This document shows positions 2,547-44,719 of a stretch of 64,000 nt of DNA, piece by piece. The stretch comes from Candidatus Acidiferrales bacterium (GTDB lineage Bacteria; Acidobacteriota; Terriglobia; Acidiferrales; UBA7541): the NCBI GenBank assembly GCA_050015335.1, contig JBEKBP010000021.1:18319-82318 (forward strand), written 5' to 3'. The translations under genes and the position numbers were made by a program. Within the stretch, counting starts at the first letter, position 1. Each line of letters begins with the position of its first letter. Under the pieces are notes generated by a model. The model was given only the letters and a program-made list of their open reading frames with translations, ran no database searches and had not been told where the DNA came from.

Positions 2547-2888
2547 CTAGGGCTTTGGGAACGGGATTCGCAAAGTGACTTGAGTGGCCTTCTTCGAGCG
2601 GATGGGGATGCGCTTCGCCCAGTCCGAACAGGAACCGTTCGAACAGGCGCGGACGTCGTATTGGCCGACAAGGAAACGGCTGAATGAGAATTGACCAGTC
2701 CCGTCGGTGCGTGTGGCGTGGGGATGCTGGCCGTCGGAGGTTTGAATGGTCACAGCCGCGCTAGCAACTGCTCTGCCGCGGGCGTCGATGACAGTTCCTT
2801 CCAGGGCTCCGAGCGCGGTCCTGGCGTTTGAGGCAGCAGGCAAAACACCCATCAAGAAAAGGGCGAGAACTGGGCGCAAGATCTTCAT
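2547..2888 (-). CDS. Small secreted carboxypeptidase-regulatory-like (CarboxypepD_reg) domain protein
   Basis: ATG at 2888 gives MKILRPVLALFLMGVLPAASNA, a signal peptide, followed by G.V.D..G..V..A.V....DG......TD..G.F.F..L..G.Y. Confidence 0.6.
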   Translation of the reverse strand: MKILRPVLALFLMGVLPAASNARTALGALEGTVIDARGRAVASAAVTIQTSDGQHPHATRTDGTGQFSFSRFLVGQYDVRACSNGSCSDWAKRIPIRSKKATQVTLRIPFPKP

Positions 2889-3116
2889 GACCGATTTCAA
2901 GGCTATTTTAGCGCTCGCAGCGGGAGGTTTTTCCGCGAGTTGGCCAGATTTGTTCACCAAGTGCAACCTGTGCGGATGGACAGACAGCCCGGGTAGGCAT
3001 CCCTTCTACGGGAAAAAGCTTGGGTGAGTCGGTGAGTCCACCGATTTGCTTCTCAGCAATGAGCGGGTATATTCGGTTGGCGGACTCACCGTATCACCCG
3101 CTTGAACAGGAGCCCC

Positions 3117-3380
3117 ATGGCTCGATACCTCTCACAACACACGCTTGCCTGCCTAACGCGCCAGGGAGCCGACGAACTGGCCCGGCGCTTGTCCGATGGA
3201 AAAGAAATCGCTGCGAGGCGTGTCCTGGTCAACATGCACGAAGGAAAAATGCTGGTGGAATTCGACGCGCCCGGGCGCGACCAGCTCGAGCAGTGGCTGG
3301 CGGCGCAGAAATTTCATTTCGACTGGCTGTTGCGGATTGAGCTTGAATCGGTCGGGGACAAGTTACAGCCGGTCGGCTAG
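3117..3380 (+). CDS. DUF4242 (SCO4226-like) small protein
   Basis: AGGAG at 3108-3112 precedes ATG 3117. The product MARYLSQHTL...VNMHEGKMLVEFDAP resembles the DUF4242 family. Confidence 0.5.
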   Translation: MARYLSQHTLACLTRQGADELARRLSDGKEIAARRVLVNMHEGKMLVEFDAPGRDQLEQWLAAQKFHFDWLLRIELESVGDKLQPVG

Positions 3381-3452: not shown

Positions 3453-4316
3453 TTAGTTCCCGCTCGAGGTTGCCGGCTCCCCAACGGGTTTGGGCACGCT
3501 GAGGTAGCCAGCCACTTTGTTCTTCCCAACCTGATTGATCACAATCTCCATCGGCCGATGGGCTCCATGGGCATAGAAGAAGATCGGCTCATTGATGCTG
3601 CGATTGCGCTTTTCGGTGCGCGCATCATCCACGATGATCGCTAGGTTGCATTGGGCCTTCTTGGGATCGGTGCTCTTGAGCTCGACGGTAATGTCACCTA
3701 CCTTTTGAGGAGTGTTCCTGGCCGCAACGGTGAACTCGATATAGTCGCGTTCGCCCAAACGCCGCAAGGTTTCGATGTCGTCATGGTTCTTGGCGATGAG
3801 CGTTCCCATCTCGCTGCGCGCCATCTGCAGATCCTTCTTGGTGCTGTCGAGATCAGTGCGGACAACGGTTACCTGGCCGCTGACTTGCTTTACGTCGTCA
3901 TTGCTGGCTTTGGTGGCGAGCTGGCCGTTGACCTCGCTGTTCATGACCTGGAACTGCTTGGTTTCATCGTCACGGATCTGCTGGGCCTGGTCCTGGGCTT
4001 CCTGACGCGCCTTCTTGAGCTGCCCCTGGGTGATCTGCAGCCGCTTGGTCACGACGCTAAGGTCTCCCATCAGGTCCGCGTTGGTCTTCTCATTCTGCGC
4101 CAGGCGCTGCTGGAGCGAGTTCACGTCGGTGGTATAGCTCTGCTTCACGGCCTGAATGTCGCCATTCAAGGCTTGCCGGCTATCCTGCGCATAGCTTAAA
4201 CCCTTCCACCCCACTCCCAGCCCGACCGCTGCAAGCACTGCTACCAATGCGATCACAGGGACTACCCATGCAGGCTGTCCTTCCTGCACAATCGCCGGTC
4301 CCGTTTGGTTGGTCAT
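3453..4316 (-). CDS. Membrane-anchored coiled-coil protein (hypothetical)
   Basis: GGGAGGGAGA SD lies before ATG 4316. There is one N-terminal TM helix (WVVPVIALVAVLAAVGLGVGW), then a Q/K/D-rich heptad-like region. Confidence 0.55.
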   Translation of the reverse strand: MTNQTGPAIVQEGQPAWVVPVIALVAVLAAVGLGVGWKGLSYAQDSRQALNGDIQAVKQSYTTDVNSLQQRLAQNEKTNADLMGDLSVVTKRLQITQGQLKKARQEAQDQAQQIRDDETKQFQVMNSEVNGQLATKASNDDVKQVSGQVTVVRTDLDSTKKDLQMARSEMGTLIAKNHDDIETLRRLGERDYIEFTVAARNTPQKVGDITVELKSTDPKKAQCNLAIIVDDARTEKRNRSINEPIFFYAHGAHRPMEIVINQVGKNKVAGYLSVPKPVGEPATSSGN

Positions 4317-4562
4317 CTCTAGAGTCTCCCTCCCATAGAATTTCGGCTTGAAACGGCCCGCGTGTGACATGCACGGAGCTCACCAACAAGCGATTGACGC
4401 ACAGTTGCGTACATGACTCCGCGGACGCCACTTAACGGGTCCGCACGCAAAAGGCCGTTTTCTACACGGACAGTCGGTGGCGAGTTTTTACGCGCTTCGT
4501 GTCGATTGTTCACCCCCCCGAGCTGCTTGAGGGCGACACAAACGCGAAACGCGGGCGAAATA

Positions 4563-4591
4563 TTGCTGTTTGGGGCGTCCGGGTGTATCCT
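4563..4591 (+). promoter_or_regulatory. Sigma70-like promoter TTGCTG-17-TATCCT for the polycysteine leader ORF
   Basis: -35 is at 4563-4568 and -10 at 4586-4591. The -10 ends 8 nt before ATG 4600 and there is no SD, so this looks like a leaderless-type start. Confidence 0.4.
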
Positions 4592-4599
4592 CTGGGCTT

Positions 4600-4689
4600 A
4601 TGAAGATCGGCTACCAGAGGTGTGGCTGCGGTTGTTGTTGTTGCCGCTGCACGATGATGTCCTCTGGCAGGGGCAAGCTGGGCGCCTAG
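4600..4689 (+). CDS. Polycysteine leader peptide, 29 aa: MKIGYQRCGCGCCCCRCTMMSSGRGKLGA
   Basis: ATG 4600 to TAG 4687-4689. Seven TGT/TGC codons lie within 4621-4650. The ORF is embedded in a long hairpin, followed by a terminator, and upstream of the rhodanese gene. It is below the ORF-track size cutoff. Confidence 0.5.
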   Translation: MKIGYQRCGCGCCCCRCTMMSSGRGKLGA

Positions 4690-4717
4690 AACCCGACCCC
4701 AGGTACCGATTTTCGAA

Positions 4718-4751
4718 CCCACGCCAGAGCAGATTGGCTGTGGGTTTTTTT
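4718..4751 (+). terminator. Intrinsic terminator / attenuator upstream of the rhodanese gene
   Basis: CCCACGCC (4718-4725) pairs with GGCTGTGGG (4736-4744), followed by T7 (4745-4751). It lies 53 nt upstream of ATG 4805. Confidence 0.65.
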
Positions 4752-4804
4752 ATGCTTGATGGATCTCACAAGGGGAACGACAGATTTTCAGGAGAGGAAA
4801 CGAC

Positions 4805-5668
4805 ATGGCTGACTACGCGCATCCGGAAGTGCTGGTTTCCACGCAGTGGGTGACAGAGCACGCAAGCGATCCCAAGGTTCGGCTGGTAGAGGTCGATGTG
4901 GACACGACGGCGTATGAGCAGGGCCACATCGCCGGCGCGTTGGGCTGGAACTGGCAAACGCAGCTGCAGGACAACATCCGCCGGGACTTGATCGAAAAGC
5001 CGGCACTCGAGCAGCTGCTCGGGCGATCAGGCATCTCCAACGACACGACAGTCGTCCTGTATGGCGACAACAACAATTGGTTTGCCGCCTACGCGTTCTG
5101 GCAATTGAAGTATTACCGACACAAGGACGTCCGGCTGATGAACGGAGGCCGCAAGAAGTGGCTGGAAGAGAAGCGTCCGCTGACGACGGCCACCACCAAG
5201 GTAGCTCCAGCCACCTATCAAGCCACCAGCCCCGACCAATCACTCCGCGCACGCAAGGAGCACGTGTTCGCGATCGTCGACAAGAAAGGCGAAGGGCACC
5301 TGGTCGACGTGCGCTCGGTGGATGAATTCACCGGCAAGATTATCGCGCCCCCGGGAATGTCGGAAACGGCGCAGCGCGCGGGCCATATTCCCGGGGCGGC
5401 CAACGTGCCATGGGCGCAAGCGGCCAACGAGGATGGCACCTTCAAGTCAGCCGATGCGCTCCAACAGCTTTACCAAGCAAAGGGCGTGACCGGGACAGAC
5501 GAGGTGATCGCCTATTGCCGCATCGGCGAGCGGAGTTCGCACACGTGGTTCGTGCTGAAGTATTTGCTCGGGTATGACAACGTGAAGAATTACGATGGCT
5601 CCTGGACCGAATGGGGAAACCTGGTGGGCGCGCCCATCGAAAAGGAACTCGCCGCGGCTGCCCGCTAG
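4805..5668 (+). CDS. sseA: Thiosulfate/3-mercaptopyruvate sulfurtransferase (tandem rhodanese domains)
   Basis: AGGAGAGGA SD is present. The product has two rhodanese domains and the active-site loop CRIGERSSHTWF. The N-terminal MADYAHPEVLVSTQWV is typical of the CysA/SseA family. Confidence 0.85.
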   Translation: MADYAHPEVLVSTQWVTEHASDPKVRLVEVDVDTTAYEQGHIAGALGWNWQTQLQDNIRRDLIEKPALEQLLGRSGISNDTTVVLYGDNNNWFAAYAFWQLKYYRHKDVRLMNGGRKKWLEEKRPLTTATTKVAPATYQATSPDQSLRARKEHVFAIVDKKGEGHLVDVRSVDEFTGKIIAPPGMSETAQRAGHIPGAANVPWAQAANEDGTFKSADALQQLYQAKGVTGTDEVIAYCRIGERSSHTWFVLKYLLGYDNVKNYDGSWTEWGNLVGAPIEKELAAAAR

Positions 5669-5730
5669 CCTTTTATTGTAAGTCTGGGCGACTCTGACAA
5701 AAGGCTGGCTTTGCTTGGGTCAGGAAAGGC

Positions 5731-6273
5731 TCACGGGAGCACGCTGGCGGGTATTCGGTCGCGGCGCGCTTGGTCTCGGAACTCGGAGATTTTGTCCGAT
5801 ATATCGTCGCGCTTCTTGCTGAGTTCATCCAACTCGGAAGCCCAATCGTCGGCGCGAATGCTGTAGGGCCGGACGGATTTTTTCGCGTCGCCGGTCGGCT
5901 TCCCGTCGATGGCCGAATGGAGTTGCGCGATCTGCTCGTCGAGCGGCGCAATTGCGGCCTGCAGCCTGGAAATCTGATCGCGATACCAGGCCTCACTCCG
6001 TCGGGGGGGTGGCGCGGCCGCCTTCGTCGATTTCGCCGATGCCGCGCGGGAGCCGAAAGCCGAAATCTCGGTGTCATTGTGCAAATCCGATAGATTGTCG
6101 TTGGTCCAAACCTTTTTGCCCGAAGGTGGTGGCGCGGCCGGAATTTGCGTTGCCGGTGGGGAGCAATCCTGCGGCGCGGTCGACGGAGCGTTCTGGGCGC
6201 TCAAAGATAGTGCAATCCCCGCAACAGAGCACAGGGCCCAGAGAACAATCGGCAGGCAGGACCTGGCGAACAT
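5731..6273 (-). CDS. Secreted hypothetical protein (Pro/Ala-rich, C-terminal coiled coil)
   Basis: GAGG SD is 6 nt before ATG 6273. Signal peptide is MFARSCLPIVLWALCSVAGIALSLSAQ. Confidence 0.5.
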   Translation of the reverse strand: MFARSCLPIVLWALCSVAGIALSLSAQNAPSTAPQDCSPPATQIPAAPPPSGKKVWTNDNLSDLHNDTEISAFGSRAASAKSTKAAAPPPRRSEAWYRDQISRLQAAIAPLDEQIAQLHSAIDGKPTGDAKKSVRPYSIRADDWASELDELSKKRDDISDKISEFRDQARRDRIPASVLP

Positions 6274-6340
6274 GGCAAACCTCACCGAGACAGGGAGAGA
6301 TCCGGCTGCCTCTATTTTGGACCGGCCGCACGATGGAAGG

Positions 6341-7315
6341 TTATTGGATTTCCGTCATGGGTTTCGTACTTGCCAACTCATTCTGCACCAGGATCAAGGC
6401 TTCCTTGGGCGGTCCCACGCGATGATAACGGCTGGCTTCGACGATCTGGTGTTCGTCGAATGAAAAGAAGAATTTTCGGCCTCCGAAATCGTATTGGTAG
6501 CGCGTGGGCTCCCAGATTCCCGGCGCTACTTCCGCTTGTTCCATCGAGAAAACACCGCCCCGGTACACCTTGCCCAGAATTCCGCCACCAAACGAGATAT
6601 CCCGCGTGATGTGGGCCTCGCCGCGGACCAGCTGATCTGAGTCGGGATCGACCCATGCCTTGGCGCTTATGTGAGAAAGGGCCTCCTGCAACAGGGAGTG
6701 CGGGTGAAAATCCGGTTTGAGGTCCAGCTGAAAAACGTCGCACACACGTCCATTGAACGCTTCCCGGCCCAGCCATTGCGGCGCAAAAGAATCGATCATC
6801 GTGTCGATCAACTCGGCGCGCTGCTGGTTTCGCCTGTCGTACTTCTCATAGGCGCTCTTGGCCCTGGAGTCTTCCGGCCGGAGCATCAATTGAAGAACGT
6901 CTTCCCAAGCCTGCAATTGACGGCGATAGTCGGTTGGATTGGTGGGAGTGCCATTTTCCTTGAGCAGAATTTTCAGCGTTCCCGTGCCGGTGGGCACTAC
7001 TCGGAATGTCCTGTCCTCCATGACGCGCGGACTGGCGCCCCCGGTTAGATCGGCGTGCCGCTCGATGCGCTCATATTGCTTGAGGGCTTCATCATCCCGG
7101 TGCTGGTTCGTGGCAAGCCTTTGGGCGCGAGCATTGATCTCGGCCAAGGAGGGAGGCTCGGGGGGCTGATTCGGCTGCGCGGCTGCCTGGGAGGTTGCAT
7201 GTCTTGTTGTGCCCGTTTGGGCGGTAATAGCACGAGCCCCCCAATACCCGGGCGCAATAGCCGCGGATGTGATGAACCAACTTGCTAAAATCAGGGTGGC
7301 GATGTGCCCCAACAT
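6341..7315 (-). CDS. Secreted hypothetical protein
   Basis: GGGAG SD precedes ATG 7315. The N-terminus is a hydrophobic signal/anchor. The ORF is long with coding-like third-position GC. Confidence 0.5.
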   Translation of the reverse strand: MLGHIATLILASWFITSAAIAPGYWGARAITAQTGTTRHATSQAAAQPNQPPEPPSLAEINARAQRLATNQHRDDEALKQYERIERHADLTGGASPRVMEDRTFRVVPTGTGTLKILLKENGTPTNPTDYRRQLQAWEDVLQLMLRPEDSRAKSAYEKYDRRNQQRAELIDTMIDSFAPQWLGREAFNGRVCDVFQLDLKPDFHPHSLLQEALSHISAKAWVDPDSDQLVRGEAHITRDISFGGGILGKVYRGGVFSMEQAEVAPGIWEPTRYQYDFGGRKFFFSFDEHQIVEASRYHRVGPPKEALILVQNELASTKPMTEIQ

Positions 7316-7444: not shown

Positions 7445-8347
7445 CTAGCGGGGAGCGCGATCGGCGAGCCGCTCGATGGCCATAGGACTGTTTGGATTTA
7501 AACGCGATTTCCCGCCGGGCGCGAGCACGTAGGCGAATCCGGCGGGATCGGCGGGAACGCCGGTTAGCAGACCGGCGGCGACCATGTCCTGAATGGAAGC
7601 AGGATCGTGCCCGAAACGCTTTGCATATTCTGCGGCCAGTTTGTCCAGGTGCGCTTGGTCGTCCTGGGCCTTCAAACTCAGCAACTGTTGTGCCGCGATC
7701 TTTTTGACGTTCGGATCCTTCGTCGATTCATACAATTCGCTCCAGATCATGCGGGAGGTCTCAATGGAACCGCCCTTTTGAGCGATGCGTGCGGCCATTA
7801 ATTTCGCCCAAACCGGCGCTGCGGGATTCTTGCTGGCCTGCCAGTAAGCAGCGGCGGCATTCTTGTAGTCCCGTACCCGCCAGTAGTAGAGAAAACCGAG
7901 GTCGGTCTGCAAACGCCATTCGCCTGGATTGGCGGCGATGCCGCGCTTGACGAGCTCGATGGCGAGGTCTGGCCGGCCGGCCCCCACTTCGCCTTGCTCG
8001 GAGAGAAAAATCGCGCCAAAGCGGTAGGCCGGCATCAGATGCGAATCCAGCGTTGTGGTGACATCAAGAAGCGGCCACAGCAAATCGAAGGTTGCCCCGG
8101 GTAGGCCAACCCTCCCACCGTAATACTGCACCGCCCGGGTCCAGTAAACGTCGGCGAGCAGGGAGTCATAGCCAAGGCTCAGATTTTTCGCTACTCGGCC
8201 GGAGCGAACAAGCAGCTCTTCCTGTTCTTTCGCGATCGTGGAAGTTTGGGCGTCTATGCGCTGCTGGAGCGCTGCGATTGCGACCAAAAGGATCGGGATG
8301 AAGGCAATCGCGGTCCAGAGAGAACGGGATTGGCCGCCGAATGTCAC
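7445..8347 (-). CDS. Membrane-anchored TPR-like protein, third gene of the ABC operon
   Basis: GTG start at 8347 overlaps the permease stop (GTGA overlap at 8344-8347). The product has one TM helix (LWTAIAFIPILLVAIAAL) and then TPR-like helical repeats. Confidence 0.5.
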   Translation of the reverse strand: MTFGGQSRSLWTAIAFIPILLVAIAALQQRIDAQTSTIAKEQEELLVRSGRVAKNLSLGYDSLLADVYWTRAVQYYGGRVGLPGATFDLLWPLLDVTTTLDSHLMPAYRFGAIFLSEQGEVGAGRPDLAIELVKRGIAANPGEWRLQTDLGFLYYWRVRDYKNAAAAYWQASKNPAAPVWAKLMAARIAQKGGSIETSRMIWSELYESTKDPNVKKIAAQQLLSLKAQDDQAHLDKLAAEYAKRFGHDPASIQDMVAAGLLTGVPADPAGFAYVLAPGGKSRLNPNSPMAIERLADRAPR

Positions 8348-9123
8348 TTGAGATTGCGCCTGGAAAATACGGCGGCGGCAGCGAGCAGGACAACCGTGAC
8401 GTAGGCACATGCATACAGCGTGTTCTGCGCGACCAATGAAAAGGGGATGGTTTCACCGTGCGCCGCGACCGCGATGGCGTTGAAATTATGAAAATTCGGT
8501 AACAGATAGTAGAGCGCCCGCATGAATCCTTTCAGCAATGGGCTGCGGGTAAGATCTCCCACCTCGCGAAGATCCGCTGCGAACGAGCCGGTTAGGTAAA
8601 TACCCAGGGTGAACAGCGTCGAGAGCATCGGCGTCGAAAAACAGGAGAAAAACAGCGCGAGCGCGGTGACCAGCGCCAACTCCAGCAGGATAAGGTAGAC
8701 TGCGACCAGAATCGAGAGATCCGAGCGCATGAACGGCCGGCCGACGTAGAAAAGCGCCCCCGCCAGACCAATCGTCATCAGGGCGGTGTTTACCGCGAGC
8801 GTCAGCAGCAGGCCCGCATACTTCCCTACGAGGAATTGCTGGCGGCCGATCGGCTTTGCGAGAAGGCTATAGAGTGTGCGCTTCTCGATTTCCTTGTACA
8901 CGAGCCCTACGCCTATGAATACGGCCATCACCAACCCGAAAAGGGAAATGGCCGAGAGCCCCAAATTGATAATTACCAGGCGGTCGATGCCGATGGAAAT
9001 CTGGCCCACGAGGATCGCCGCGCCAATCATCACCAGCGCGAAAAGCACGAGGTTGTAGAGCACGCGGTCGCGCACCGCTTCGCGAAATGTATTGATGGCT
9101 ACCACGGCCGTCAGCGCGCTCAT
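8344..9123 (-). CDS. ABC-2 type transporter permease
   Basis: Six predicted TM segments. The start ATG overlaps the ATPase stop (ATGA at 9120-9123). Confidence 0.7.
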   Translation of the reverse strand: MSALTAVVAINTFREAVRDRVLYNLVLFALVMIGAAILVGQISIGIDRLVIINLGLSAISLFGLVMAVFIGVGLVYKEIEKRTLYSLLAKPIGRQQFLVGKYAGLLLTLAVNTALMTIGLAGALFYVGRPFMRSDLSILVAVYLILLELALVTALALFFSCFSTPMLSTLFTLGIYLTGSFAADLREVGDLTRSPLLKGFMRALYYLLPNFHNFNAIAVAAHGETIPFSLVAQNTLYACAYVTVVLLAAAAVFSRRNLK

Positions 9124-10079
9124 CGGACCAACACCTCGACCGCGTGCGATTGTGATTTCTCCCGGCCAACGAGGCGGAGGAAATAATCCTCCAGCGTGGG
9201 GCGAACCGGCGTAACAGAAAGAATGCGAGCCTCGCAGGTTCGAAGATGCTCGACAGTCGCATAGAGTTCGTCCTCCGGCACTTCGATGCGATAGCGGCCT
9301 CCCAGATGAACGGCTCGTTCGGCGAGGGAGCGCGGCAACTCGCGGCCCTGTCGCCCTTCGAACAGGATCTCCATTCCGTGCACAGCCATTGAGACGATGT
9401 CTCCGGGAGCGCCCGCTCCTTGCAGTTTCCCGCCGACCAGCACCGCAACGCGATCACACAACATTTCCGCGTCCGAGAGGATATGGGTCGAGAAAAATAC
9501 GGTGCGGCCCTGCTGCTTCAATTGAAGAATGATGTCGCGAACCTCTCGGCGGCCGACCGGGTCAAGGCCCGACATCGGCTCGTCGAGGAAAACCACCTGG
9601 GGGTCGTGCAGGATCGCCTGGGCTATTCCCGCGCGCTGTAACATGCCCTTGGAGAATTTCCGCAGCTGCACATCGGCGGCCGTGGCCAGACCGACCATTT
9701 CGAGAAACCGCCCGACGCGTTTCCGGCGCTCCGCCGCGCCATATCCGAAAAACCGAGCGTAGTAATCAAGCAGCTCGTGCGCGGTGAGGTAGTCGTAGAA
9801 ATAGGGCTGTTCGGGCAGATAACCGATCGCGCGATGCATGCCGACGTCGTCGATCGAACGTCCGCGGATGCGCGCGGTCCCGGCGGTCGGGAAAATGAGC
9901 CCCATCAGCAGCTTCAACGTGGTGGTCTTGCCCGCCCCATTCGGGCCGAGAAAACCCAGAACCTCTCCTTGCTCCACTTCGAGGGTGAGATGATCGAGCG
10001 AGCGGCGGGTCCGCTTGCGCCAGAAACCCACGGGATAATCCTTGGTGAGCCCCAAAATTTCGATCGCCGGCGTGCTCAT
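9120..10079 (-). CDS. ABC transporter ATP-binding protein
   Basis: Walker A GPNGAGKTT, a signature-like FSKGMLQR, and Walker B VVFLDEPMSGLD. Confidence 0.9.
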   Translation of the reverse strand: MSTPAIEILGLTKDYPVGFWRKRTRRSLDHLTLEVEQGEVLGFLGPNGAGKTTTLKLLMGLIFPTAGTARIRGRSIDDVGMHRAIGYLPEQPYFYDYLTAHELLDYYARFFGYGAAERRKRVGRFLEMVGLATAADVQLRKFSKGMLQRAGIAQAILHDPQVVFLDEPMSGLDPVGRREVRDIILQLKQQGRTVFFSTHILSDAEMLCDRVAVLVGGKLQGAGAPGDIVSMAVHGMEILFEGRQGRELPRSLAERAVHLGGRYRIEVPEDELYATVEHLRTCEARILSVTPVRPTLEDYFLRLVGREKSQSHAVEVLVR

Positions 10080-10237: not shown

Positions 10238-10284
10238 CCACTATAGATAGACAGTTACGACAACGACCACCTAACATTTTGTGG
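10238..10284. promoter_or_regulatory. Candidate tandem NrdR boxes upstream of nrdJ
   Basis: CCACTATAGATAGACA (10238-10253) and ACCTAACATTTTGTGG (10269-10284) each match 11/16 positions of acaCwAtATaTwGtgt. Centre-to-centre spacing is 31 bp. Confidence 0.35.
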
Positions 10285-10302
10285 TTAAACCGCGAATTTT
10301 TC

Positions 10303-10331
10303 TTGACAAGTTTTTCGCGACGCCCGATACT
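10303..10331 (+). promoter_or_regulatory. Sigma70-like promoter TTGACA-17-GATACT for nrdJ
   Basis: -35 TTGACA at 10303-10308 and -10 GATACT at 10326-10331. An alternative, TAGACA-18-TAACAT (10247-10276), overlaps the NrdR-like boxes. Confidence 0.45.
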
Positions 10332-10689
10332 GCGCAACCAGACTCGCAAGAGAAAACGGAAGTCGATTGTCGCCTCAGCCCGCGCGATCGGCCCAACGAG
10401 GCAGCGGGACCGGCTTAGTAAACCAACGCGCAATATCCCCTTCCATCCGCGAGCAGTGTTGCGCGCGGCTTGGCTGGGCTTTTTCATTTTCCCCGGCTTA
10501 GGCGCCGGCTTCGGGGCACCTTCGCTTTCGATTGAGACGTGTGAACCGCTCGTTGCGCGTGCCAGTGACGATCACTCGATACGCGCCACAACTTCCGGCT
10601 TCCGGGAATGGGGAGTAGAATTAGGCAACAAGCCTCCCGCCTGGCACCCCGGCCAACTTTCGACGGCAAGACTGCCGGCGCGGAGGCAG

Positions 10690-13506
10690 ATGATGGCAGA
10701 GACACGGATGGTCCTGAACGGAACCATGCAAACGCAACAGACAACTCGAAAGGCAACCGGCCTGGATTTCCAGCGCTGGTTTACAGACGGCAAGATTGCC
10801 CCGTTCGACAAGGTCGAATGGGAACGCCGGACCGCACTGATCGGCAATGAGAAGGGACAGGTAATTTTCAGGCAGGAGAATGTGGAGGTGCCCAAGAGCT
10901 GGTCGCAGACGGCGACCAACATCGTGGCCTCCAAGTATTTTCACGGGAAACCGAACACCCACGAGCGCGAAACCTCGGCGCGGCAACTGATCGGCCGCGT
11001 GGTAGATACCATCGTGCGCTGGGGAGACGAAGGCGGCTACTTCGCTACTCCGGAATCGAAAAACGCGTTTCGCGACGAGCTGGCCCACCTGCTCGTGGAA
11101 CAGAAGATGGCTTTCAATTCGCCTGTGTGGTTCAACGTCGGCGTGCAGGCCAAGCCGCAGTGCTCGGCGTGCTTCATCAACTCCGTCCAGGACAGCATGG
11201 ACTCCATTATGAACCTCGCCAAGACGGAGGGGATGCTGTTCAAGTGGGGCTCCGGCACGGGCACGAATTTCTCTTCTCTGCGCGGCAGCCGTGAATCTCT
11301 TTCCGGGGGCGGAATCGCCTCGGGCCCGGTGAGTTTCATGAAGGGCTTCGATGCCTTTGCGGGTGTGATCAAGAGCGGCGGAAAAACACGCCGCGCCGCC
11401 AAGATGGTGATCCTCAACATCGATCACCCGGACATCCAGGAGTTCATCGAATCCAAGATGAAGGAGGAGCGCAAGGCGCAAGTCCTGATCGAGCAGGGCT
11501 ATAACTCTTCGATTGACGGCGAGGCCTATTCCTCGGTGTTCTTCCAGAACGCGAACCATTCGGTGCGCGTGACCGACGACTACATGCGCGCCGTGGAAGA
11601 GGATCGCGACTGGTGGACGCGCAACGTGAACGACGGGAAGCCGGTGGATAAATTCCGCGCGCGCGATCTGATGCGCGAAATGTCGGAATCGGCGTGGCAA
11701 TGCGGCGATCCGGGCATGCAGTACGACACGACCATCAATCGCTGGCACACCTGCAAAGCCACCGATCGCATCAACGCATCCAACCCGTGCTCTGAATACA
11801 TGTTCCTCGACGATACGGCCTGCAATCTCGCGTCGCTCAACCTGCTGAAGTTTCTGGGCGATAACGGGCAATTCGATGCGGCCGGTTTCCGGCACGCCGT
11901 CGAGGTAACCATCACCGCGCAAGAGATTCTGGTCGACAACGCGAGCTATCCGACCGAGAAGATCGCGCGCAACTCGCACGATTTCCGCCCGCTGGGAATT
12001 GGCTACGCGAACCTGGGCGCGCTGCTGATGTCGATGGCGCTCCCCTATGATTCTGACGGCGGCCGCGATTTTTGCGGCGCGGTTACGGCTTTGCTGACCG
12101 GCGAGTCCTACGCGCAGTCGGCGCGCATCGCCGAGCGCATGGGCCCGTTTGGCGGCTATCTACGCAACCGCGAACCCATGCTCGAGGTGATCCGGATGCA
12201 TCGCGATTCGCTTCGCCCCATCAAGGAAGAAAACGTGCAGCCCTCCCTGCTGCGGGCCGCGCAGGAATCCTGGGATGCCGCGCTCGAATTGGGCGAGAGA
12301 TTCGGATTCAAGAATTCGCAGGTTTCCGTGCTCGCGCCCACGGGCACCATCGGCTTCATGATGGATTGCGATACCACCGGAATTGAACCGGACCTCGCGC
12401 TCGTCAAGCAGAAGAGGCTCGTGGGCGGCGGCGTGATCAAGATCGTGAACAACACCGTGCCCCAGGCCCTGATGAAGCTGGGGTATCCGCCGGAGCAAGT
12501 GGCGCAAATCGTCGATTACATCGACGCGGAAGGCAAAATCGAAGGAGCGTCAGGTCTAAAGCCCGAGCATCTTCCCGTGTTCGATTGCTCGCTCACCCCG
12601 ATGGGCGGCGGGCGGTCCATTGCCTGGCGCGGCCACCTCAAGATGATGGCGGCGGCGCAACCATTCCTCTCCGGCGCCATCAGCAAGACCATCAACATGC
12701 CGGAAGAATCCACGGTGGAAGATATTTCCGAGGCTTACATCGAATCCTGGAAGCTCGGCCTCAAAGCCGTAGCCATCTACCGCGACAATTCCAAGCGCTC
12801 GCAACCGCTCTCGGCCGCAGGAAAGAAGGACGAAGGAAAACCAGCGGCAGTCGATGCTGTCGCCGTAAAGGCAGCGCTGCCCGAAGTGCCTGCTCCCGAG
12901 CAACAGGAGCTTTTTGTGCCCAGCGCGCATCGCCGCAAGCTGCAGAACGAGCGCAGCTCGATCACCCACAAGTTCTCTATCGGCGGCCACGAAGGCTATT
13001 TGACCGTCGGGAAGTACGAGGACGGCACGCCCGGTGAAATCTTCATCAAGATGGCGAAAGAGGGGTCGACGCTTTCTGGCATCATGGATGCCTTTGCGTT
13101 GTCGGTTTCGATTGCCCTGCAGTACGGCGTGCCGCTTCGCGCGCTGGTCGATAAGTTCGTGAATTCGCGCTTCGAACCCTCGGGTTACACCGGCAATCCC
13201 GAAATCCGCTACGCGAAATCCATCGTGGACTACCTCGGGCGCTGGCTCGGCGGGAAATTCATCTCTCGTGATTACTTGGATGCCGATGTGATCGAAGAGA
13301 TCACTCCAGTGGCGTCGGCTCCAGCGGCCGCTTCCAAGGCACCGGCGGCAGGCGTAGCCGCCAAAGTTGGTGAACCGGAACTTGCCACGCGTCCGCGTGC
13401 AGCAATCGACGATGCGCCATCCTGCTCGGAATGCGGAATGCTCATGACGCCGAACGGCAGTTGCTACAAATGCGCGAACTGCGGCAGCACTTCGGGTTGC
13501 AGTTAA
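10690..13506 (+). CDS. nrdJ: Adenosylcobalamin-dependent ribonucleoside-diphosphate reductase (class II RNR)
   Basis: GGAGG at 10682-10686 precedes ATGATG at 10690. Conserved class II blocks are present (FNSPVWFN, CSACFI, GSGTGTNFS.LR, NPCSEY). The C-terminus is a Cys-rich tail, CSECG...CYKCANCG. The start is uncertain within about 40 nt. Confidence 0.85.
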   Translation: MMAETRMVLNGTMQTQQTTRKATGLDFQRWFTDGKIAPFDKVEWERRTALIGNEKGQVIFRQENVEVPKSWSQTATNIVASKYFHGKPNTHERETSARQLIGRVVDTIVRWGDEGGYFATPESKNAFRDELAHLLVEQKMAFNSPVWFNVGVQAKPQCSACFINSVQDSMDSIMNLAKTEGMLFKWGSGTGTNFSSLRGSRESLSGGGIASGPVSFMKGFDAFAGVIKSGGKTRRAAKMVILNIDHPDIQEFIESKMKEERKAQVLIEQGYNSSIDGEAYSSVFFQNANHSVRVTDDYMRAVEEDRDWWTRNVNDGKPVDKFRARDLMREMSESAWQCGDPGMQYDTTINRWHTCKATDRINASNPCSEYMFLDDTACNLASLNLLKFLGDNGQFDAAGFRHAVEVTITAQEILVDNASYPTEKIARNSHDFRPLGIGYANLGALLMSMALPYDSDGGRDFCGAVTALLTGESYAQSARIAERMGPFGGYLRNREPMLEVIRMHRDSLRPIKEENVQPSLLRAAQESWDAALELGERFGFKNSQVSVLAPTGTIGFMMDCDTTGIEPDLALVKQKRLVGGGVIKIVNNTVPQALMKLGYPPEQVAQIVDYIDAEGKIEGASGLKPEHLPVFDCSLTPMGGGRSIAWRGHLKMMAAAQPFLSGAISKTINMPEESTVEDISEAYIESWKLGLKAVAIYRDNSKRSQPLSAAGKKDEGKPAAVDAVAVKAALPEVPAPEQQELFVPSAHRRKLQNERSSITHKFSIGGHEGYLTVGKYEDGTPGEIFIKMAKEGSTLSGIMDAFALSVSIALQYGVPLRALVDKFVNSRFEPSGYTGNPEIRYAKSIVDYLGRWLGGKFISRDYLDADVIEEITPVASAPAAASKAPAAGVAAKVGEPELATRPRAAIDDAPSCSECGMLMTPNGSCYKCANCGSTSGCS

Positions 13507-17588: not shown

Positions 17589-20375
17589 TCAGTGGTGCTG
17601 CAGCGTGGCGATGCGGTCAGAGACGTCGCGGTAATCGATATTCATCGCATAGACCTGGCGGAAACAATCGAGCGCCTCATCGGAGTCACCCGACGTCTCA
17701 AGAGAAATGCCCAGATCATATCGCAGTGCGAGAATTGTTTCCTGCTCAAGACCCGGTACCTCGAGAGCGCGCTTATACCAGAGCGCCGCGATCTTCGGCT
17801 CGCCCTTATCTGCGAAGGAGAGCGCCAATAGGACCGCGCAATTCATGGCGTAACGGAAGGGCTTTCCCTTCTGCACCGCTTTCGCCACTTTTTGAAATTC
17901 GCCGATGGCCTCATCGAGCAGTCCCATTTCACGATAGGCGATGCCCAGATTGTAATGGGTTTCGAGATCCTCGTCTTCTTCTTCCCCAAGTTCACCCAAT
18001 TCGTCGCGAAACTCTTGGAAGACTTCTGACAGTTCATTCAAGCTTTCGGCTTTCGGCTCGGTGGCCAGCGCGGAACCGGCCGGCTCAGAGGTTTGCGCGG
18101 CGGCCGGTAAGGAAATCTTTCCCCCGATACCGCCCGGAGGGTCGCTGTTGACGGGTGCCGGTAGTTCCAACCCGTCCACTTCTAAAGCGAGCTCGCCGAT
18201 GAAATCTTCTGTCGTAGATGCCCCTTTTTTTTCGCCGGCCTCGGACGGTGCGGGGGTCAGTTCAAGCTCGAATTCAGCACTCTCCGCGGCGGCTTCGTCG
18301 GCCGAGGGCGCTTCGGGCGCGAGCGGATCGGCAAACCCGAAAAGCTCTGCCGCCGCAGGCTGCTCCTCCGCAGCTTCTTCGTGAATCTCGTAAACCTCCG
18401 GTTCCAAGGACAGGGAAGCGGCCGCTTCAGGCTCGAAGGCGCTTTCCAGATCGATTGTTTCCGCCGTTTCAAGGGCGGCAATGAGCGGCTCGGCGGGCGG
18501 AAGAGTGGACGCCTCGACGATCGCCGGAGGCGGGGGCTCAACAACTTCCTGCACCATCGCTTCCCATTCGTCGGAGAGATCTACCTCTTCTGCCAGCCCC
18601 GCTGGTTGAGCGCTCGGCTGAGACTGTTCGGCTGGCGTCTCGGGTGAAATTTCAAATTCCTTTGTTTCCGTTTCCTGCGACTCAGGTTCCATGTCCACAG
18701 GAACCGCCCCTGCGGAGGCCGGCTCGACTGTATGGGTCCCCGGTAGGGCGGGGACCGAAATCGCATCCCCTGGCGTTTGCGGTCGATCGCCCGGCGCGTC
18801 TGCGGCATTCTGAAAACTCTTGCGGAGTTGGGCGAATCGCTCGGCATTGGTTCCATCGTTCCGCTCACGGTAAATCTGCTCGAGCGTGGCGGCTAATTGC
18901 GCCGTTCGTGGATCGTCTCCGGCACCCACCGAGAGATCCAAAAGCCGTTCCAGAGTCGGCGCGTGTCGAGGCGCGCGTTGCAACACAGCCTCGAGCAGGT
19001 TGGCGGCCTTCTGTGCCAGACCATAGCTGGAGAACAAGTCCACGTCGGTGAGCGCCTGCGCAATATAGTGGCGTGTTTCGGGATCGAGGACGTCCTGGTT
19101 GGCCGGCGCATCGGCAGAAGAATCTCTCTGCTGGTGAGTGGGGGCGAGGCAGATCGAATCGGGGTTCGGCGGCGCCGCAGGTTCGCTTTCCGACTTGGGA
19201 AGTTTGCCATTCCGGATACGCACCGATGCAAGGCGCGCCGCGAGACCCTCGTTATCGCGATTCCGGTCGACCAATTCTTCCAGGAGTTGTTCGACGCGCT
19301 CGTTGTTTCCTGCCGCTTCGTAGATATCGGCGAGCTGGGTAAGCGCCACCGTTAGCGGAAAAGGATCGCTGGTGTGGCGGCAGAAATCAGCGAGCAGCTC
19401 GAGAGCCTCGGTATTGCCCGGGAGGCGTTCGGTCGCCCCCGAGAGCGACTTCACAAACTTGTCGTGCTCGCCCACTTCGATCATGGGATCGCGAAGTTCC
19501 CTGAACAGCGGAAGCGCTTCCTCGGCCTGCCCCTTTTCCACAAGCGTCTCGGACACGCGGAAAAGCAGGCCAAAGTGCGAATTGCCGCGCACCAATTGGT
19601 TGCGCGCGCGATCCGACGCAGCTTCAATTTGTCCCGTCTTCAGTTCAAGATCGACAAGGAGGTTTGTAACTTCGGTGCCGGCATCGGCTTCCGGGTGCTT
19701 CTCGAGAATCTTGATGGCCCCCGCGTCCTTCCCGGTGGATGCCAGGATCTTGGCCTTCAGCAGCAGAGCACAGGAATCACCGGGAGCTACTTCCAGGGCG
19801 CGTTCGACCAGCTTTTCAGATTCCGCATGGTCGCCACGATCAAACAGGCGCTGGCCATACCCGAGGTAGGTCTTCGCCGCGTCGACCTTCTGGCCCATGA
19901 CGTTGTAGAGCTCGGCGAGACGCATTTGCACCCGTGGATTTTCAGGCTCCACTTCGAGCAGGCGGTGAAGCACCTCGACGGCCTTGGGAGCGCGATGGGC
20001 CTTCAGGTGCGCTTCTGCAATTTGCAAAAAGAGGGGGCGCGCCTCGCTAAGCACTCCTTGCTGCACGTATAGATCGGCGAGCTTCTCAAGAGGAGAGAGC
20101 TCCAAAGGCGCTAATTTGGCGATTTTCTTGTAGATGGCGATGGCTTTGCTGTTGAAGCCATCGGCGAGATATACCTGCGCCAGGCGCTCGAAGTATTCCA
20201 GCGCATGGGACATGTCACCCTGGCGGGCGAACAGGTCGCCCACCGTCATCAGGGTGGCCTGATCCTTGGGGTCGTTGCGGAGAATCTGTTGGTACTCGGC
20301 GATGGCCTGATTGACCCTGCCTTGGTTCAAATACTTGAGAGCGCTCTCAAGCGCTTTGCTCTTATTGAAGGCCAT
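17589..20375 (-). CDS. Large tetratricopeptide-repeat protein with a central acidic low-complexity spacer
   Basis: TPR units at the N-terminus (about 400 aa) and C-terminus (about 190 aa). The central segment of about 330 aa is E/P/A-rich. Confidence 0.7.
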   Translation of the reverse strand: MAFNKSKALESALKYLNQGRVNQAIAEYQQILRNDPKDQATLMTVGDLFARQGDMSHALEYFERLAQVYLADGFNSKAIAIYKKIAKLAPLELSPLEKLADLYVQQGVLSEARPLFLQIAEAHLKAHRAPKAVEVLHRLLEVEPENPRVQMRLAELYNVMGQKVDAAKTYLGYGQRLFDRGDHAESEKLVERALEVAPGDSCALLLKAKILASTGKDAGAIKILEKHPEADAGTEVTNLLVDLELKTGQIEAASDRARNQLVRGNSHFGLLFRVSETLVEKGQAEEALPLFRELRDPMIEVGEHDKFVKSLSGATERLPGNTEALELLADFCRHTSDPFPLTVALTQLADIYEAAGNNERVEQLLEELVDRNRDNEGLAARLASVRIRNGKLPKSESEPAAPPNPDSICLAPTHQQRDSSADAPANQDVLDPETRHYIAQALTDVDLFSSYGLAQKAANLLEAVLQRAPRHAPTLERLLDLSVGAGDDPRTAQLAATLEQIYRERNDGTNAERFAQLRKSFQNAADAPGDRPQTPGDAISVPALPGTHTVEPASAGAVPVDMEPESQETETKEFEISPETPAEQSQPSAQPAGLAEEVDLSDEWEAMVQEVVEPPPPAIVEASTLPPAEPLIAALETAETIDLESAFEPEAAASLSLEPEVYEIHEEAAEEQPAAAELFGFADPLAPEAPSADEAAAESAEFELELTPAPSEAGEKKGASTTEDFIGELALEVDGLELPAPVNSDPPGGIGGKISLPAAAQTSEPAGSALATEPKAESLNELSEVFQEFRDELGELGEEEDEDLETHYNLGIAYREMGLLDEAIGEFQKVAKAVQKGKPFRYAMNCAVLLALSFADKGEPKIAALWYKRALEVPGLEQETILALRYDLGISLETSGDSDEALDCFRQVYAMNIDYRDVSDRIATLQHH

Positions 20376-43627: not shown

Positions 43628-44719
43628 TCACGCCTCGACCAACTCTTGCTTAAGACGCTCGGATTCATAGTGCGTCACCAGCGCGTCGACCAACGGGGCG
43701 AGCTTGCCTTCCATCACTTCGGTGAGCTGGTGCAGCGTGAAATTGATGCGATGATCCGAGACGCGGTTCTGCGGGTAATTGTAGGTGCGGATTTTTTCCG
43801 AACGGTCGCCGGTCTTGATTTGTCCGCGGCGCTCGGCGGCAATGGCTTCGTGCTGCTTGGATTGCTCCATTTCATAGAGGCGCGCGCGCAGCACGCGCAT
43901 GGCCTTGGCGCGGTTCTTGATCTGCGATTTTTCGTCCTGCTGCGACACGACGAGCCCGCTCGGGATGTGCGTGATGCGCACCGCCGAGTAGGTCGTGTTC
44001 ACCGACTGGCCGCCAGGGCCGGAGGAGCAAAACGTATCGATGCGCAAATCCTTGGGCTCGATCTTGATGTCGATCTCGTCGGCCTCCGGCAGCACGGCCA
44101 CCGTCGCCGCCGACGTGTGGATGCGGCCCTGCTGCTCGGTGGCAGGAACGCGCTGCACGCGGTGCACGCCGCTTTCATACTTCAGCTTCGAATACACGTT
44201 CTTTCCCTGAATCGCCGCCACCACCTCCTTCATGCCTCCGATCGACGACGCGGAACTTTCCAGGATTTCCACGCGCCAGCCCTGGGTTTCCGCGTACCGC
44301 GAGTACATCCGGAAAAGCTCTCCCGCGAAAAGAGAAGCCTCGTCGCCGCCCGTGCCGGCGCGGATTTCGACGATCACGTTTTTTTCGTCGTTGGGATCTT
44401 TGGGAATCAGCAGCAGCTTGAGTTCCCTCTCGACGATTTCGTGGCGCGCCTCAAGGGCGTGCTCCTCGTCGTGGGCCATCTGCTTCATCTCCGCGTCGTC
44501 GGTTTCGACAAGCAACTGCTTGGCGCCCTGCAGTCCCTTCTCGATTTCCTTCCATTCTCGGTATTTGGCCACCATCTGAGCCATCTCGGCGTGCGTCTTG
44601 GCGAGCTTCTGATAACGCGCTGAATCCGAGAGTATCTCGGGTGAGGAAAGCTGCTGCGTCATTTCCTCATAGCGGGCCTCGATGTGATTGAGTTTTTCAA
44701 AAAGCGTCAGATTCGCCAT
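43628..44719 (-). CDS. prfA: Peptide chain release factor 1
   Basis: PAT tripeptide (RVPATE) and [11 protein letters not shown]. Confidence 0.95.

Follow-up and report, generated by a model that had tools for sequence, protein, structure and literature searches.

Introduction

Cysteine has long been a notable gap among the amino acids controlled by leader-peptide attenuation. In Firmicutes, Cys-specific T-box leaders take tRNA(Cys) charging as their input and give a terminator/antiterminator decision as their output, the RNA itself reading the uncharged tRNA with neither a ribosome nor a leader peptide. The polycysteine leaderless small open reading frames (sORFs) of mycobacteria (Ms5788A/Rv0815A, the 'Cys ribulon') occur in many copies before cysteine and sulfur genes, including the cysA2 operon (Canestrari et al., 2020; bioRxiv 10.1101/834739). 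The Cys tract of these sORFs is 3'-terminal and base-pairs with the Shine-Dalgarno (SD) sequence of the gene that follows; regulation was shown to act on translation and not on transcription, and a construct with an independent SD and reporter gave no cysteine response (bioRxiv 10.1101/834739). The same authors stated that attenuation mediated by an upstream open reading frame (uORF) was undescribed for cysteine (bioRxiv 10.1101/834739). The uORFC-8-2 motif before cysS in Rhodobacterales was predicted to combine a Cys uORF with an intrinsic terminator and was read as Cys-tRNA attenuation (Brewer et al., RNA Biol 2021; PMC8632094), while Seliverstov et al. (2005; PMC1262725) reported Cys-run leader peptides before cysteine-metabolism genes in Actinobacteria 'without obvious terminators' and left the mode of regulation open. 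The only experimentally proven cysteine case, that of mycobacteria, is translational, and the only terminator-coupled case is a prediction for one gene, cysS. Here we describe a Cys-rich leader ahead of a rhodanese gene in a stretch of DNA of 64,000 nucleotides (nt) from a Candidatus Acidiferrales bacterium (contig JBEKBP010000021.1, forward-strand positions 18,319 to 82,318), which we call the window, and argue from comparative and modelled evidence that this leader is very probably a classical ribosome-mediated transcription attenuator sensing cysteine or, strictly, the supply of Cys-tRNA(Cys).

The Acidobacteriota are among the most abundant and least genetically understood soil phyla, and in a published survey almost none of the attenuators predicted for them have an assigned function (PMC2965389). 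The element described here gives a concrete model for the regulation of sulfur assimilation in this phylum.

Results

A Cys-rich leader, a terminator and a rhodanese gene

The leader sORF MKIGYQRCGCGCCCCRCTMMSSGRGKLGA occupies positions 4600-4689 of the plus strand, on which all features of the element lie, and consists of 29 codons followed by TAG at 4687-4689. Seven of ten codons at 4621-4650 are TGT or TGC (reading C G C G C C C C R C), and this cluster is the proposed stalling site. Immediately upstream, region A (CCAGAGG, 4614-4620, Q-R codons) is the putative anti-antiterminator strand and is complementary to region B (CCTCTGGC, 4661-4668, S-S-G codons), whose partner may be either A or a third segment, region C (GCCAGAG, 4723-4729). 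A check of the window sequence placed CCTCTGG at 4661-4667 and CTCTGGC at 4662-4668. Region C lies in the 5' arm of an intrinsic terminator (4715-4751) and can pair either with B, as the predicted antiterminator, or with the strand that we call D, as the terminator. The terminator stem joins 4715-4726 to 4735-4747 with U4739 bulged, is followed by a T7 run at 4745-4751, and has a folding energy of -15.7 kcal/mol in isolation. Between B and C, the folds contain a hairpin around the stop codon (4678-4702), in which CTGGG (4678-4682) pairs with CCCAG (4698-4702) and the TAG sits in the loop.

Upstream of the sORF are a -35-like hexamer, TTGCTG (4563-4568), assigned because family leaders conserve TTGnnn, and a -10-like hexamer, TATCCT (4586-4591), with a 17-nt spacer between them and 8 nt between the latter and the ATG at 4600. 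No purine-rich SD was found in these 8 nt. Downstream, 53 nt separate the end of the T7 run from the rhodanese ATG at 4805, and neither sequence inspection nor the promoter scanner found a separate promoter in this interval. The SD of the rhodanese gene (AGGAGAGGA, 4790-4798), read from the sequence, lies 40 nt past the terminator and is unpaired with the leader or Cys tract in an extended fold. The gene itself (4805-5668) encodes a two-domain rhodanese of 287 amino acids (aa), a thiosulfate sulfurtransferase of the CysA2/CysA3 type (Pfam PF00581, two copies), whose closest structures in the PDB include Thermus rhodanese 1UAR (E = 6e-110) and the M. tuberculosis CysA2/CysA3-type entries 3HWI and 3AAX (~1e-100). 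The coordinates that a preliminary description of this DNA had given for the sORF, promoter, Cys codons and regions A, B and C were all correct on this check, and the clean terminator that it had placed 53 nt before the sulfurtransferase ATG is the one delimited above.

An Rfam search of window region 3500-6500 gave no relevant match at E ≤ 10. Two longer open reading frames (ORFs) that overlap the leader (4413-4853, plus strand; 4510-4722, minus strand) were rejected as genes, having no Pfam match and lying off the conserved frame.

The leader is conserved ahead of orthologous genes, with codon-level and RNA-level constraint in different parts

We compared 80 loci carrying rhodanese orthologues (66-85% identity), almost all of them from Acidobacteriota metagenome-assembled genomes and many labelled Candidatus Acidiferrales (class Terriglobia). 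Relatives had been suggested as the place to look for Cys-rich sORFs upstream of rhodanese and cys genes, and such an sORF, of 25-34 codons, lies upstream of rhodanese in at least 36 of the 80 loci; among the metagenome contigs listed below it also precedes cys genes. The layout is shared across the family, with the sORF stop ~110-150 nt ahead of the rhodanese start and a hairpin plus T-run ~55-60 nt past the stop. When both strands of ~1.2 Mb were scanned, the attenuator unit occurred 33 times directly upstream of rhodanese and 3 times elsewhere. Given this recurrence upstream of an orthologous gene, the leader unit of the window is, on comparative grounds, more than a product of chance.

Cys accounts for 165 of 803 leader codons (20.5%; 96 TGT, 69 TGC). 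Where Cys codons align, their first and second positions are conserved and the third swaps between T and C, almost never becoming A or G, so the constraint acts on Cys codon identity. Cys is also alone among the amino acids in being conserved, and both the number of Cys codons (3-11) and their spacing vary from leader to leader. The tail (V-S-S-G-x-G-R-L-G) is constrained in another way: in its TCT and GGC codons, the four-fold degenerate third positions are frozen (T in 30 and C in 28 of 31 leaders), and its amino acids change where the underlying stop-hairpin helix covaries. In the rhodanese leader of locus L086 (1562-1824, plus strand), the polyCys ORF MISCCQKAAGDGCCTCCYTCPLARAG crosses region B in another frame, giving ...CPLARAG-stop, and reaches its stop codon sooner, within the 5' arm of that leader's stop hairpin, so that the RNA element is kept and the tail peptide is not. 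The frozen third positions, the tail changes that accompany the helix and the frame used in L086 together argue that the tail is an RNA element and not a conserved peptide.

Loss of the leader was seen in two loci over positions 2740-3000. Compared with its relative L007, locus L010 has an in-frame stop, has lost the Cys run, carries a mutated B and lacks the U-tract; compared with L011, locus L013 has lost the start codon and the Cys run and has kept the terminator hairpin. By comparison with these relatives both are decayed leader copies, and the loss in L010 is concerted.

These patterns bear on the possibility that the sORF is a functional Cys-rich micropeptide gene, its product a metal-binding or persulfide-carrying partner of the rhodanese, with the hairpin and T-run as its leaky terminator. 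The ORF is conserved, probably translated and adjacent to sulfur-transfer enzymes, and a dual role for the peptide is possible. A micropeptide would, however, be expected to conserve more than Cys codons that differ in number and spacing, and it leaves unexplained a tail that is constrained as RNA and read in another frame in L086, the complementarity of B to the terminator 5' arm with its compensatory changes, and the presence of non-Cys peptides on the same scaffold ahead of ilvC and aspartokinase (both described below). A rhodanese gene with no separate promoter in the 53 nt ahead of it also fits poorly with a terminator that belongs to another gene, and we consider the micropeptide explanation very unlikely.

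Promoter spacing supports a leaderless or near-leaderless transcript

The window promoter was not called by a simple consensus scanner (8 of 12 consensus positions match), and because of this its support was taken from conservation. The arrangement of TTGnnn, a 17/18-nt spacer, TAnnnT and then an ATG or GTG 6-10 nt further on is in frame with the Cys codons in 28 of the 31 genome leaders, compared with 0 and 1 of 31 for the other two frames. Among the metagenome matches listed, the promoter with an in-frame start is present in 99 of 116 leaders, against 1 and 6 for the remaining two frames, and the start codon most often lies 6-7 nt past the -10. Transcription usually starts ~7 nt past the -10 box. 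Taken with the 6-10 nt spacing of the start codon, this implies a leaderless or near-leaderless mRNA, and the promoter spacing supports a transcription start at, or within a few bases of, ATG 4600. The conserved spacing is thus in agreement with the leaderless start that had been proposed for this sORF.

Predicted alternative helices show compensatory changes

Explicit helices were tested on a 31-sequence alignment with slide and shuffle controls; the shuffles ignore phylogeny and the figures are indicative. The terminator was 93.5% paired, with compensatory changes present, the A:B helix was 85.9% paired, and seven of eight pairs of the stop-codon hairpin had changed on both sides. Overall helix covariation was above that of all 500 shuffles and all slid registers. 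B:C was 83.6% paired overall, with a 6-bp core (UCUGGC:GCCAGA) that is nearly invariant and at least 87% paired, and the pair adjoining this core was C:G in 8, U:A in 8 and U:G in 4 sequences. In the 118 distinct metagenome leaders listed, the two pairs flanking the B:C core covary (86 paired vs 76.4±2.8 in shuffles, and 45 vs 34.3±4.1), and the base 3' of the B core is G, pairing with a fixed C, in 94. Single loci show the same behaviour: in L054, the C, G and C found at positions B97, C168 and D187 are replaced by U, A and U, which preserves both the antiterminator pair and the terminator pair, and in L007 the pair C93:G172 has become U:A.

Tests that used no alignment gave a helix enclosing the stop codon in 137 of 143 leaders and, in 144 distinct leaders, an upstream segment complementary to B that averages -11.2 kcal/mol (z = -1.77 vs shuffles). 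In 106 of the 120 leaders listed, the distance from the B core to the stop codon is exactly 6 codons (18 nt, roughly half a ribosome footprint). An Rfam search with seven leaders of other gene classes returned only tRNAs at the gathering threshold.

The window leader is more stable than its shuffles (z = -2.97) and forms the terminator. In its minimum-energy fold the sORF is enclosed by a larger helix, 4602-4614 : 4702-4714, and not simply by A:B. The preliminary description had set the Cys codons in a long hairpin based on CCAGAGG:CCTCTGG; the complementarity at that base is enriched in the family, and the minimum-energy fold of the window has the larger helix instead. Its trp-like layout of 1:2, 2:3 and 3:4 pairings is supported for B:C and the terminator, where complementarity, compensatory changes and the ribosome-mask folding below agree, and is weaker for A:B, which is not dominant in about half of the family.

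Predicted folding of the antiterminator depends on ribosome position

The ribosome was modelled as a 30-nt mask, steric effects being outside the model, and each transcript was folded as it would be just before the 3' arm of the terminator is made, in place of the full-length folds, with the specific probability of B:C as the metric. A simpler metric, C paired with anything upstream, was too crude, gave an inverted result for the window, and was replaced by P(B:C). In truncated folds of the window, GCCAGAG stayed unpaired when no ribosome was present and when the A site held the Ser22 codon or the stop codon, and CUCUGGC:GCCAGAG formed, closing over the stop hairpin, when the codon for Cys8, Cys12 or Cys17 was in the A site. 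Comparison of alternative structures, which had been put forward as a check, thus gives B:C with the ribosome on the Cys codons in truncated folds, and no switch in full-length ones. Across the family, P(B:C) was ~0.9 while the ribosome stood anywhere between the start codon and the end of the Cys run, and was 0 once it had moved a few codons past the last Cys. Part of this drop is trivial, because B is then masked. What is not trivial, within the model, is that B prefers C whenever it is free, that the distance from the end of the Cys run to B is just large enough, and that the spacing of the stop is fixed in most leaders.

Folding also bears on a translational attenuator like mycobacterial Ms5788A, in which stalling on the Cys codons would unmask the rhodanese SD and the hairpin would be incidental. 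Its inputs and target enzyme family are those of the proven mycobacterial system, and orthologous loci without a terminator do exist. In the distant Terriglobia orthologues L064, L068, L072 and L078 (~2850-3000) and L074 (~2250-2401), a different leader carries a 23-25-codon sORF that ends in Cys-Cys-Cys-stop (CCSC-stop in L074) ~72 nt before the gene, followed by a CU-rich tract with the terminator absent, a layout that resembles the mycobacterial C-terminal polyCys sORFs. When these CCC-stop leaders were folded with and without the ribosome mask, no consistent SD-sequestration switch was found. In the window, the rhodanese SD is beyond the terminator and pairs with neither leader nor Cys tract, B complements the terminator arm and not the SD, and across the family the hairpin and U-run are the best-conserved part of the element. 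A translational mode is highly improbable for the window leader.

A model for cysteine-responsive attenuation

The analysis above shows which elements are present, how far each is conserved and complementary to its partners, whether constraint acts on codons or on RNA, and how predicted folding varies with ribosome position, and the locus has, computationally, an upstream translatable ORF, codons for the end product, an intervening terminator and a ribosome-dependent antiterminator. In the attenuation model, a ribosome would translate the 29-codon leader while RNA polymerase approaches the terminator. When Cys-tRNA is plentiful, the ribosome would pass the seven Cys codons and move onto B (4661-4668) and then to the stop 18 nt on; B would be covered by the ribosome, with the stop hairpin melted, or would re-pair with A (4614-4620) behind it. 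Region C (4723-4729) would then be free to pair with D, the terminator (4715-4747 plus the T7 run) would form, and the transcript would end at 4745-4751, before the rhodanese gene. When Cys-tRNA is scarce, a ribosome stalled on the Cys codons would cover or displace A and leave B naked. B would capture C once this had been transcribed, aided by the stop-codon hairpin, which would bring B and C together; with the 5' arm of the terminator unavailable, the polymerase would read through into the sulfurtransferase gene. The transcription start, translation of the sORF, stalling, termination and the cysteine response are the steps that we infer.

The scaffold precedes other sulfur-assimilation genes and carries other codons ahead of other pathways

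A metagenome scan with the pattern TCTGGC-N(45-75)-CCACCGCCAGA-N(8-20)-GGTGGG matched at least 120 contigs. Downstream of the scaffold were a two-domain rhodanese (at least 28 contigs, only 28 of the 120 listed), a sulfite reductase (NIR_SIR; at least 24), CysD-like PAPS_reduct proteins (at least 18), a 106-aa single-domain rhodanese (at least 13), CysH-like PAPS_reduct proteins (at least 4) and TauE/SafE (at least 2). Among the matches listed, the leaders before these genes are Cys-rich, typically with 4-11 Cys. Cys leaders also precede a Porin_5-family outer-membrane protein in at least 3 contigs (L090:1202-2842, L171 and L188) and a 626-aa secreted protein with no Pfam match in at least 2 (L137:2824-4701 and L154), the gene for the latter starting ~370-390 nt past the terminator; by their position, the Porin_5 and 626-aa proteins are candidate unannotated members of a sulfur regulon. 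On this comparison the Cys leaders are a regulon-wide family and not a one-gene curiosity, and they outline an undescribed acidobacterial regulon. The Cys-sensing logic set out in the preliminary description gains support as a predicted function from the division between codon-level and RNA-level constraint, from the mask folds, and from the occurrence of the scaffold before sulfate-assimilation genes.

At least 3 contigs carry the scaffold with zero Cys codons in the leader. Two of these leaders, MNSRNNLRISLLTLLTVGVRVRLAISGWGQG and MATIFMLTGQNAIRLSVSVGVRVRIWVSGREADR, are rich in Leu/Val/Ile and lie upstream of ketol-acid reductoisomerase (IlvC), and the third, MISVSQKTKRITAPVTTDKAKRITLSSGGGHLLS, is rich in Thr/Lys/Ile and lies upstream of aspartokinase (zero-Cys scaffold leaders at L117:5254-5512, plus strand; L126:5077-5344, plus strand; and L124:3682-3948, minus strand). 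Regulatory codons that match the downstream pathway are a hallmark of ribosome-mediated attenuation. Because the codons track the downstream pathway in this way, a micropeptide gene or a protein-binding repeat is very hard to fit. In L117 and L126 the sORF seems to be preceded by a longer 5' leader, so that these two would not be leaderless.

The scaffold of B, stop hairpin and C-terminator might be one homologous leaderless cassette that was copied and re-coded (Cys; Leu/Val/Ile for ilvC; Thr/Lys/Ile for aspartokinase) to become the general amino-acid sensor of the phylum, with cysteine biosynthesis controlled mainly by attenuation and not by a regulator of the CysB/CymR type. We put this broader proposal forward tentatively, judging the case for it to fall slightly short of the case against.

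The range of targets also bears on whether the same attenuator hardware could report another signal, for instance general translation stress, damage by oxidants to the tRNA(Cys) or thiol pools, or an indirect reading of sulfur or thiosulfate status. Stalling on Cys codons would report only charged tRNA(Cys), which several stresses can lower, and the targets include rhodaneses and the TauE exporter in addition to biosynthetic enzymes; the commonest targets listed are nevertheless core sulfate-assimilation genes (cysD, cysH and sulfite reductase), which fits end-product control and leaves a different primary signal extremely unlikely. Scarcely credible, finally, is a protein- or ligand-binding RNA switch in which UGY triplets are a binding site and are not read by ribosomes, for although triplet repeats at fixed spacing can be protein-binding sites (compare the (G/U)AG repeats for TRAP) and the RNA is structured (z = -2.97), such a switch would not account for the in-frame start 6-10 nt past a conserved -10 in the great majority of leaders (28/31, and 99/116 among the matches listed), the conserved position of the stop codon, third triplet positions limited to T/C, which avoids stop and Trp codons, or the L/V/I and T/K/I versions that lack UGY repeats and have codons matching the downstream pathway, and no Rfam family was matched.

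Observations that weigh against attenuation

Several results count against reading the leader as a cysteine-responsive attenuator. About 35 of the 80 orthologous loci are without the element. The metagenome scan pattern forced identical B, C and D cores, and the taxonomy of its contigs was not established. The covariation of B:C rests on two flanking pairs and two loci, the core being nearly invariant and the shuffles ignoring phylogeny. RNAalifold, run blind on a MAFFT alignment, recovered the terminator and not A:B or the stop hairpin, which it missed because the alignment register is poor there. When the folding model includes no ribosome, A:B dominates in roughly half of the members only, and B:C is already favoured in about half; by this measure A:B is not the default throughout the family, and transcripts that are not translated might escape termination. 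Placing the ribosome at the stop codon lets B:C re-form in 8 of 29 modelled members. When full-length transcripts are folded to equilibrium, the terminator (-16 to -25 kcal/mol) wins at every ribosome position. Since the terminator always wins at equilibrium, a switch of the kind proposed must be kinetic, as in the trp leader, where the terminator is likewise favoured at equilibrium and the decision is kinetic.

Other leaders at orthologous loci and other features of the window

In loci L042, L045, L050, L051, L052, L055, L057, L059, L063 and L071, which have no Cys sORF, a common box, TTGAATC(N)CGATAAAAAAGAGGGTGATTT, lies ~80-110 nt upstream of the rhodanese start at 3001 (L055: 423), and related GAATC...GATTC palindromes occur in L030, L038, L043, L044, L047 and L048. 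The TTGAATC box may serve as the operator of a transcription factor acting in place of the attenuator in those lineages. Cys-rich sORFs with different architectures lie upstream of rhodanese at L058:2213-2326 (11 Cys in 36 codons), L066:2815-2955 (9 Cys, with internal GC-rich hairpins) and L070:2890-3002 (overlapping the rhodanese start), and may be independent inventions of Cys-sensing leaders.

No further polyCys leader or regulon gene, and no other sulfur-assimilation gene, was found within the 64-kb window. The sole other match to a small Cys ORF plus terminator (43785-43877, plus strand) overlaps a 363-aa minus-strand ORF, has no family features and is probably due to chance. The neighbourhood is otherwise ordinary housekeeping, including a class II (B12-dependent) ribonucleotide reductase and an ABC-2 transporter pair (10279-13506, plus strand; 8344-10079, minus strand). 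A 92-aa ORF (3102-3380, plus strand) that ends ...FHFDWLLRIELESVGDKLQPVG has no significant Pfam match; its homologues lie directly upstream of the rhodanese or the leader in many orthologous loci (e.g. L037, L042, L045 and L055), and in the window a 305-aa minus-strand gene without assigned function (3453-4370) stands between this ORF and the leader.

Discussion

We found no description of an acidobacterial Cys-leader family in the literature searched or in Rfam. The preliminary description knew of no terminator-coupled version in this lineage; this is true for the lineage but not more widely, the uORFC-8-2 motif having been predicted in Rhodobacterales (PMC8632094). What is new is a terminator-coupled variant in a new phylum that looks leaderless and Cys-sensing, together with a sulfate-assimilation regulon and a scaffold re-coded for other amino acids; the principle is not new. 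A natural series in which one RNA scaffold carries different regulatory codons is useful for the study of attenuator evolution and for synthetic amino-acid sensors.

The mechanism proposed here is closest to that of the Proteobacteria attenuators (trp, his, leu, thr, ilv and pheA; the Yanofsky model). In both, a short ORF with codons for the end product is followed by an intrinsic terminator, A, B and C correspond to regions 1, 2 and 3, and the position of the ribosome decides, or here would decide, the outcome kinetically. The present leaders differ in sensing cysteine, in being apparently leaderless with no SD, in belonging to Acidobacteriota, in having a stop-codon hairpin between regions 2 and 3, and in having A:B as the default in only about half of members; they share no sequence similarity with the proteobacterial leaders and match no Rfam leader family.

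With the mycobacterial sORFs the element shares runs of Cys codons, a multi-copy regulon, a CysA2-type target and a leaderless start, which here is judged from promoter spacing. Unlike those sORFs, it has an internal Cys tract, a conserved terminator, a separate antiterminator strand downstream of the Cys codons and an SD that is not sequestered. The uORFC-8-2 motif (PMC8632094), itself a prediction, has two tandem Cys codons at about positions 14-15 inside the first stem and is found before cysS only, in alpha-proteobacteria, and the leaders described here differ from it in gene, lineage and layout. Cys runs are common to these leaders and to those of Actinobacteria (PMC1262725), which lack obvious terminators, whereas here the terminator is the best-conserved part. 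The T-box leaders of Firmicutes have the same input and output as the mechanism proposed here, and no T-box match was obtained with Rfam; in the acidobacterial leaders, the charging of tRNA(Cys) would be read by a translating ribosome.

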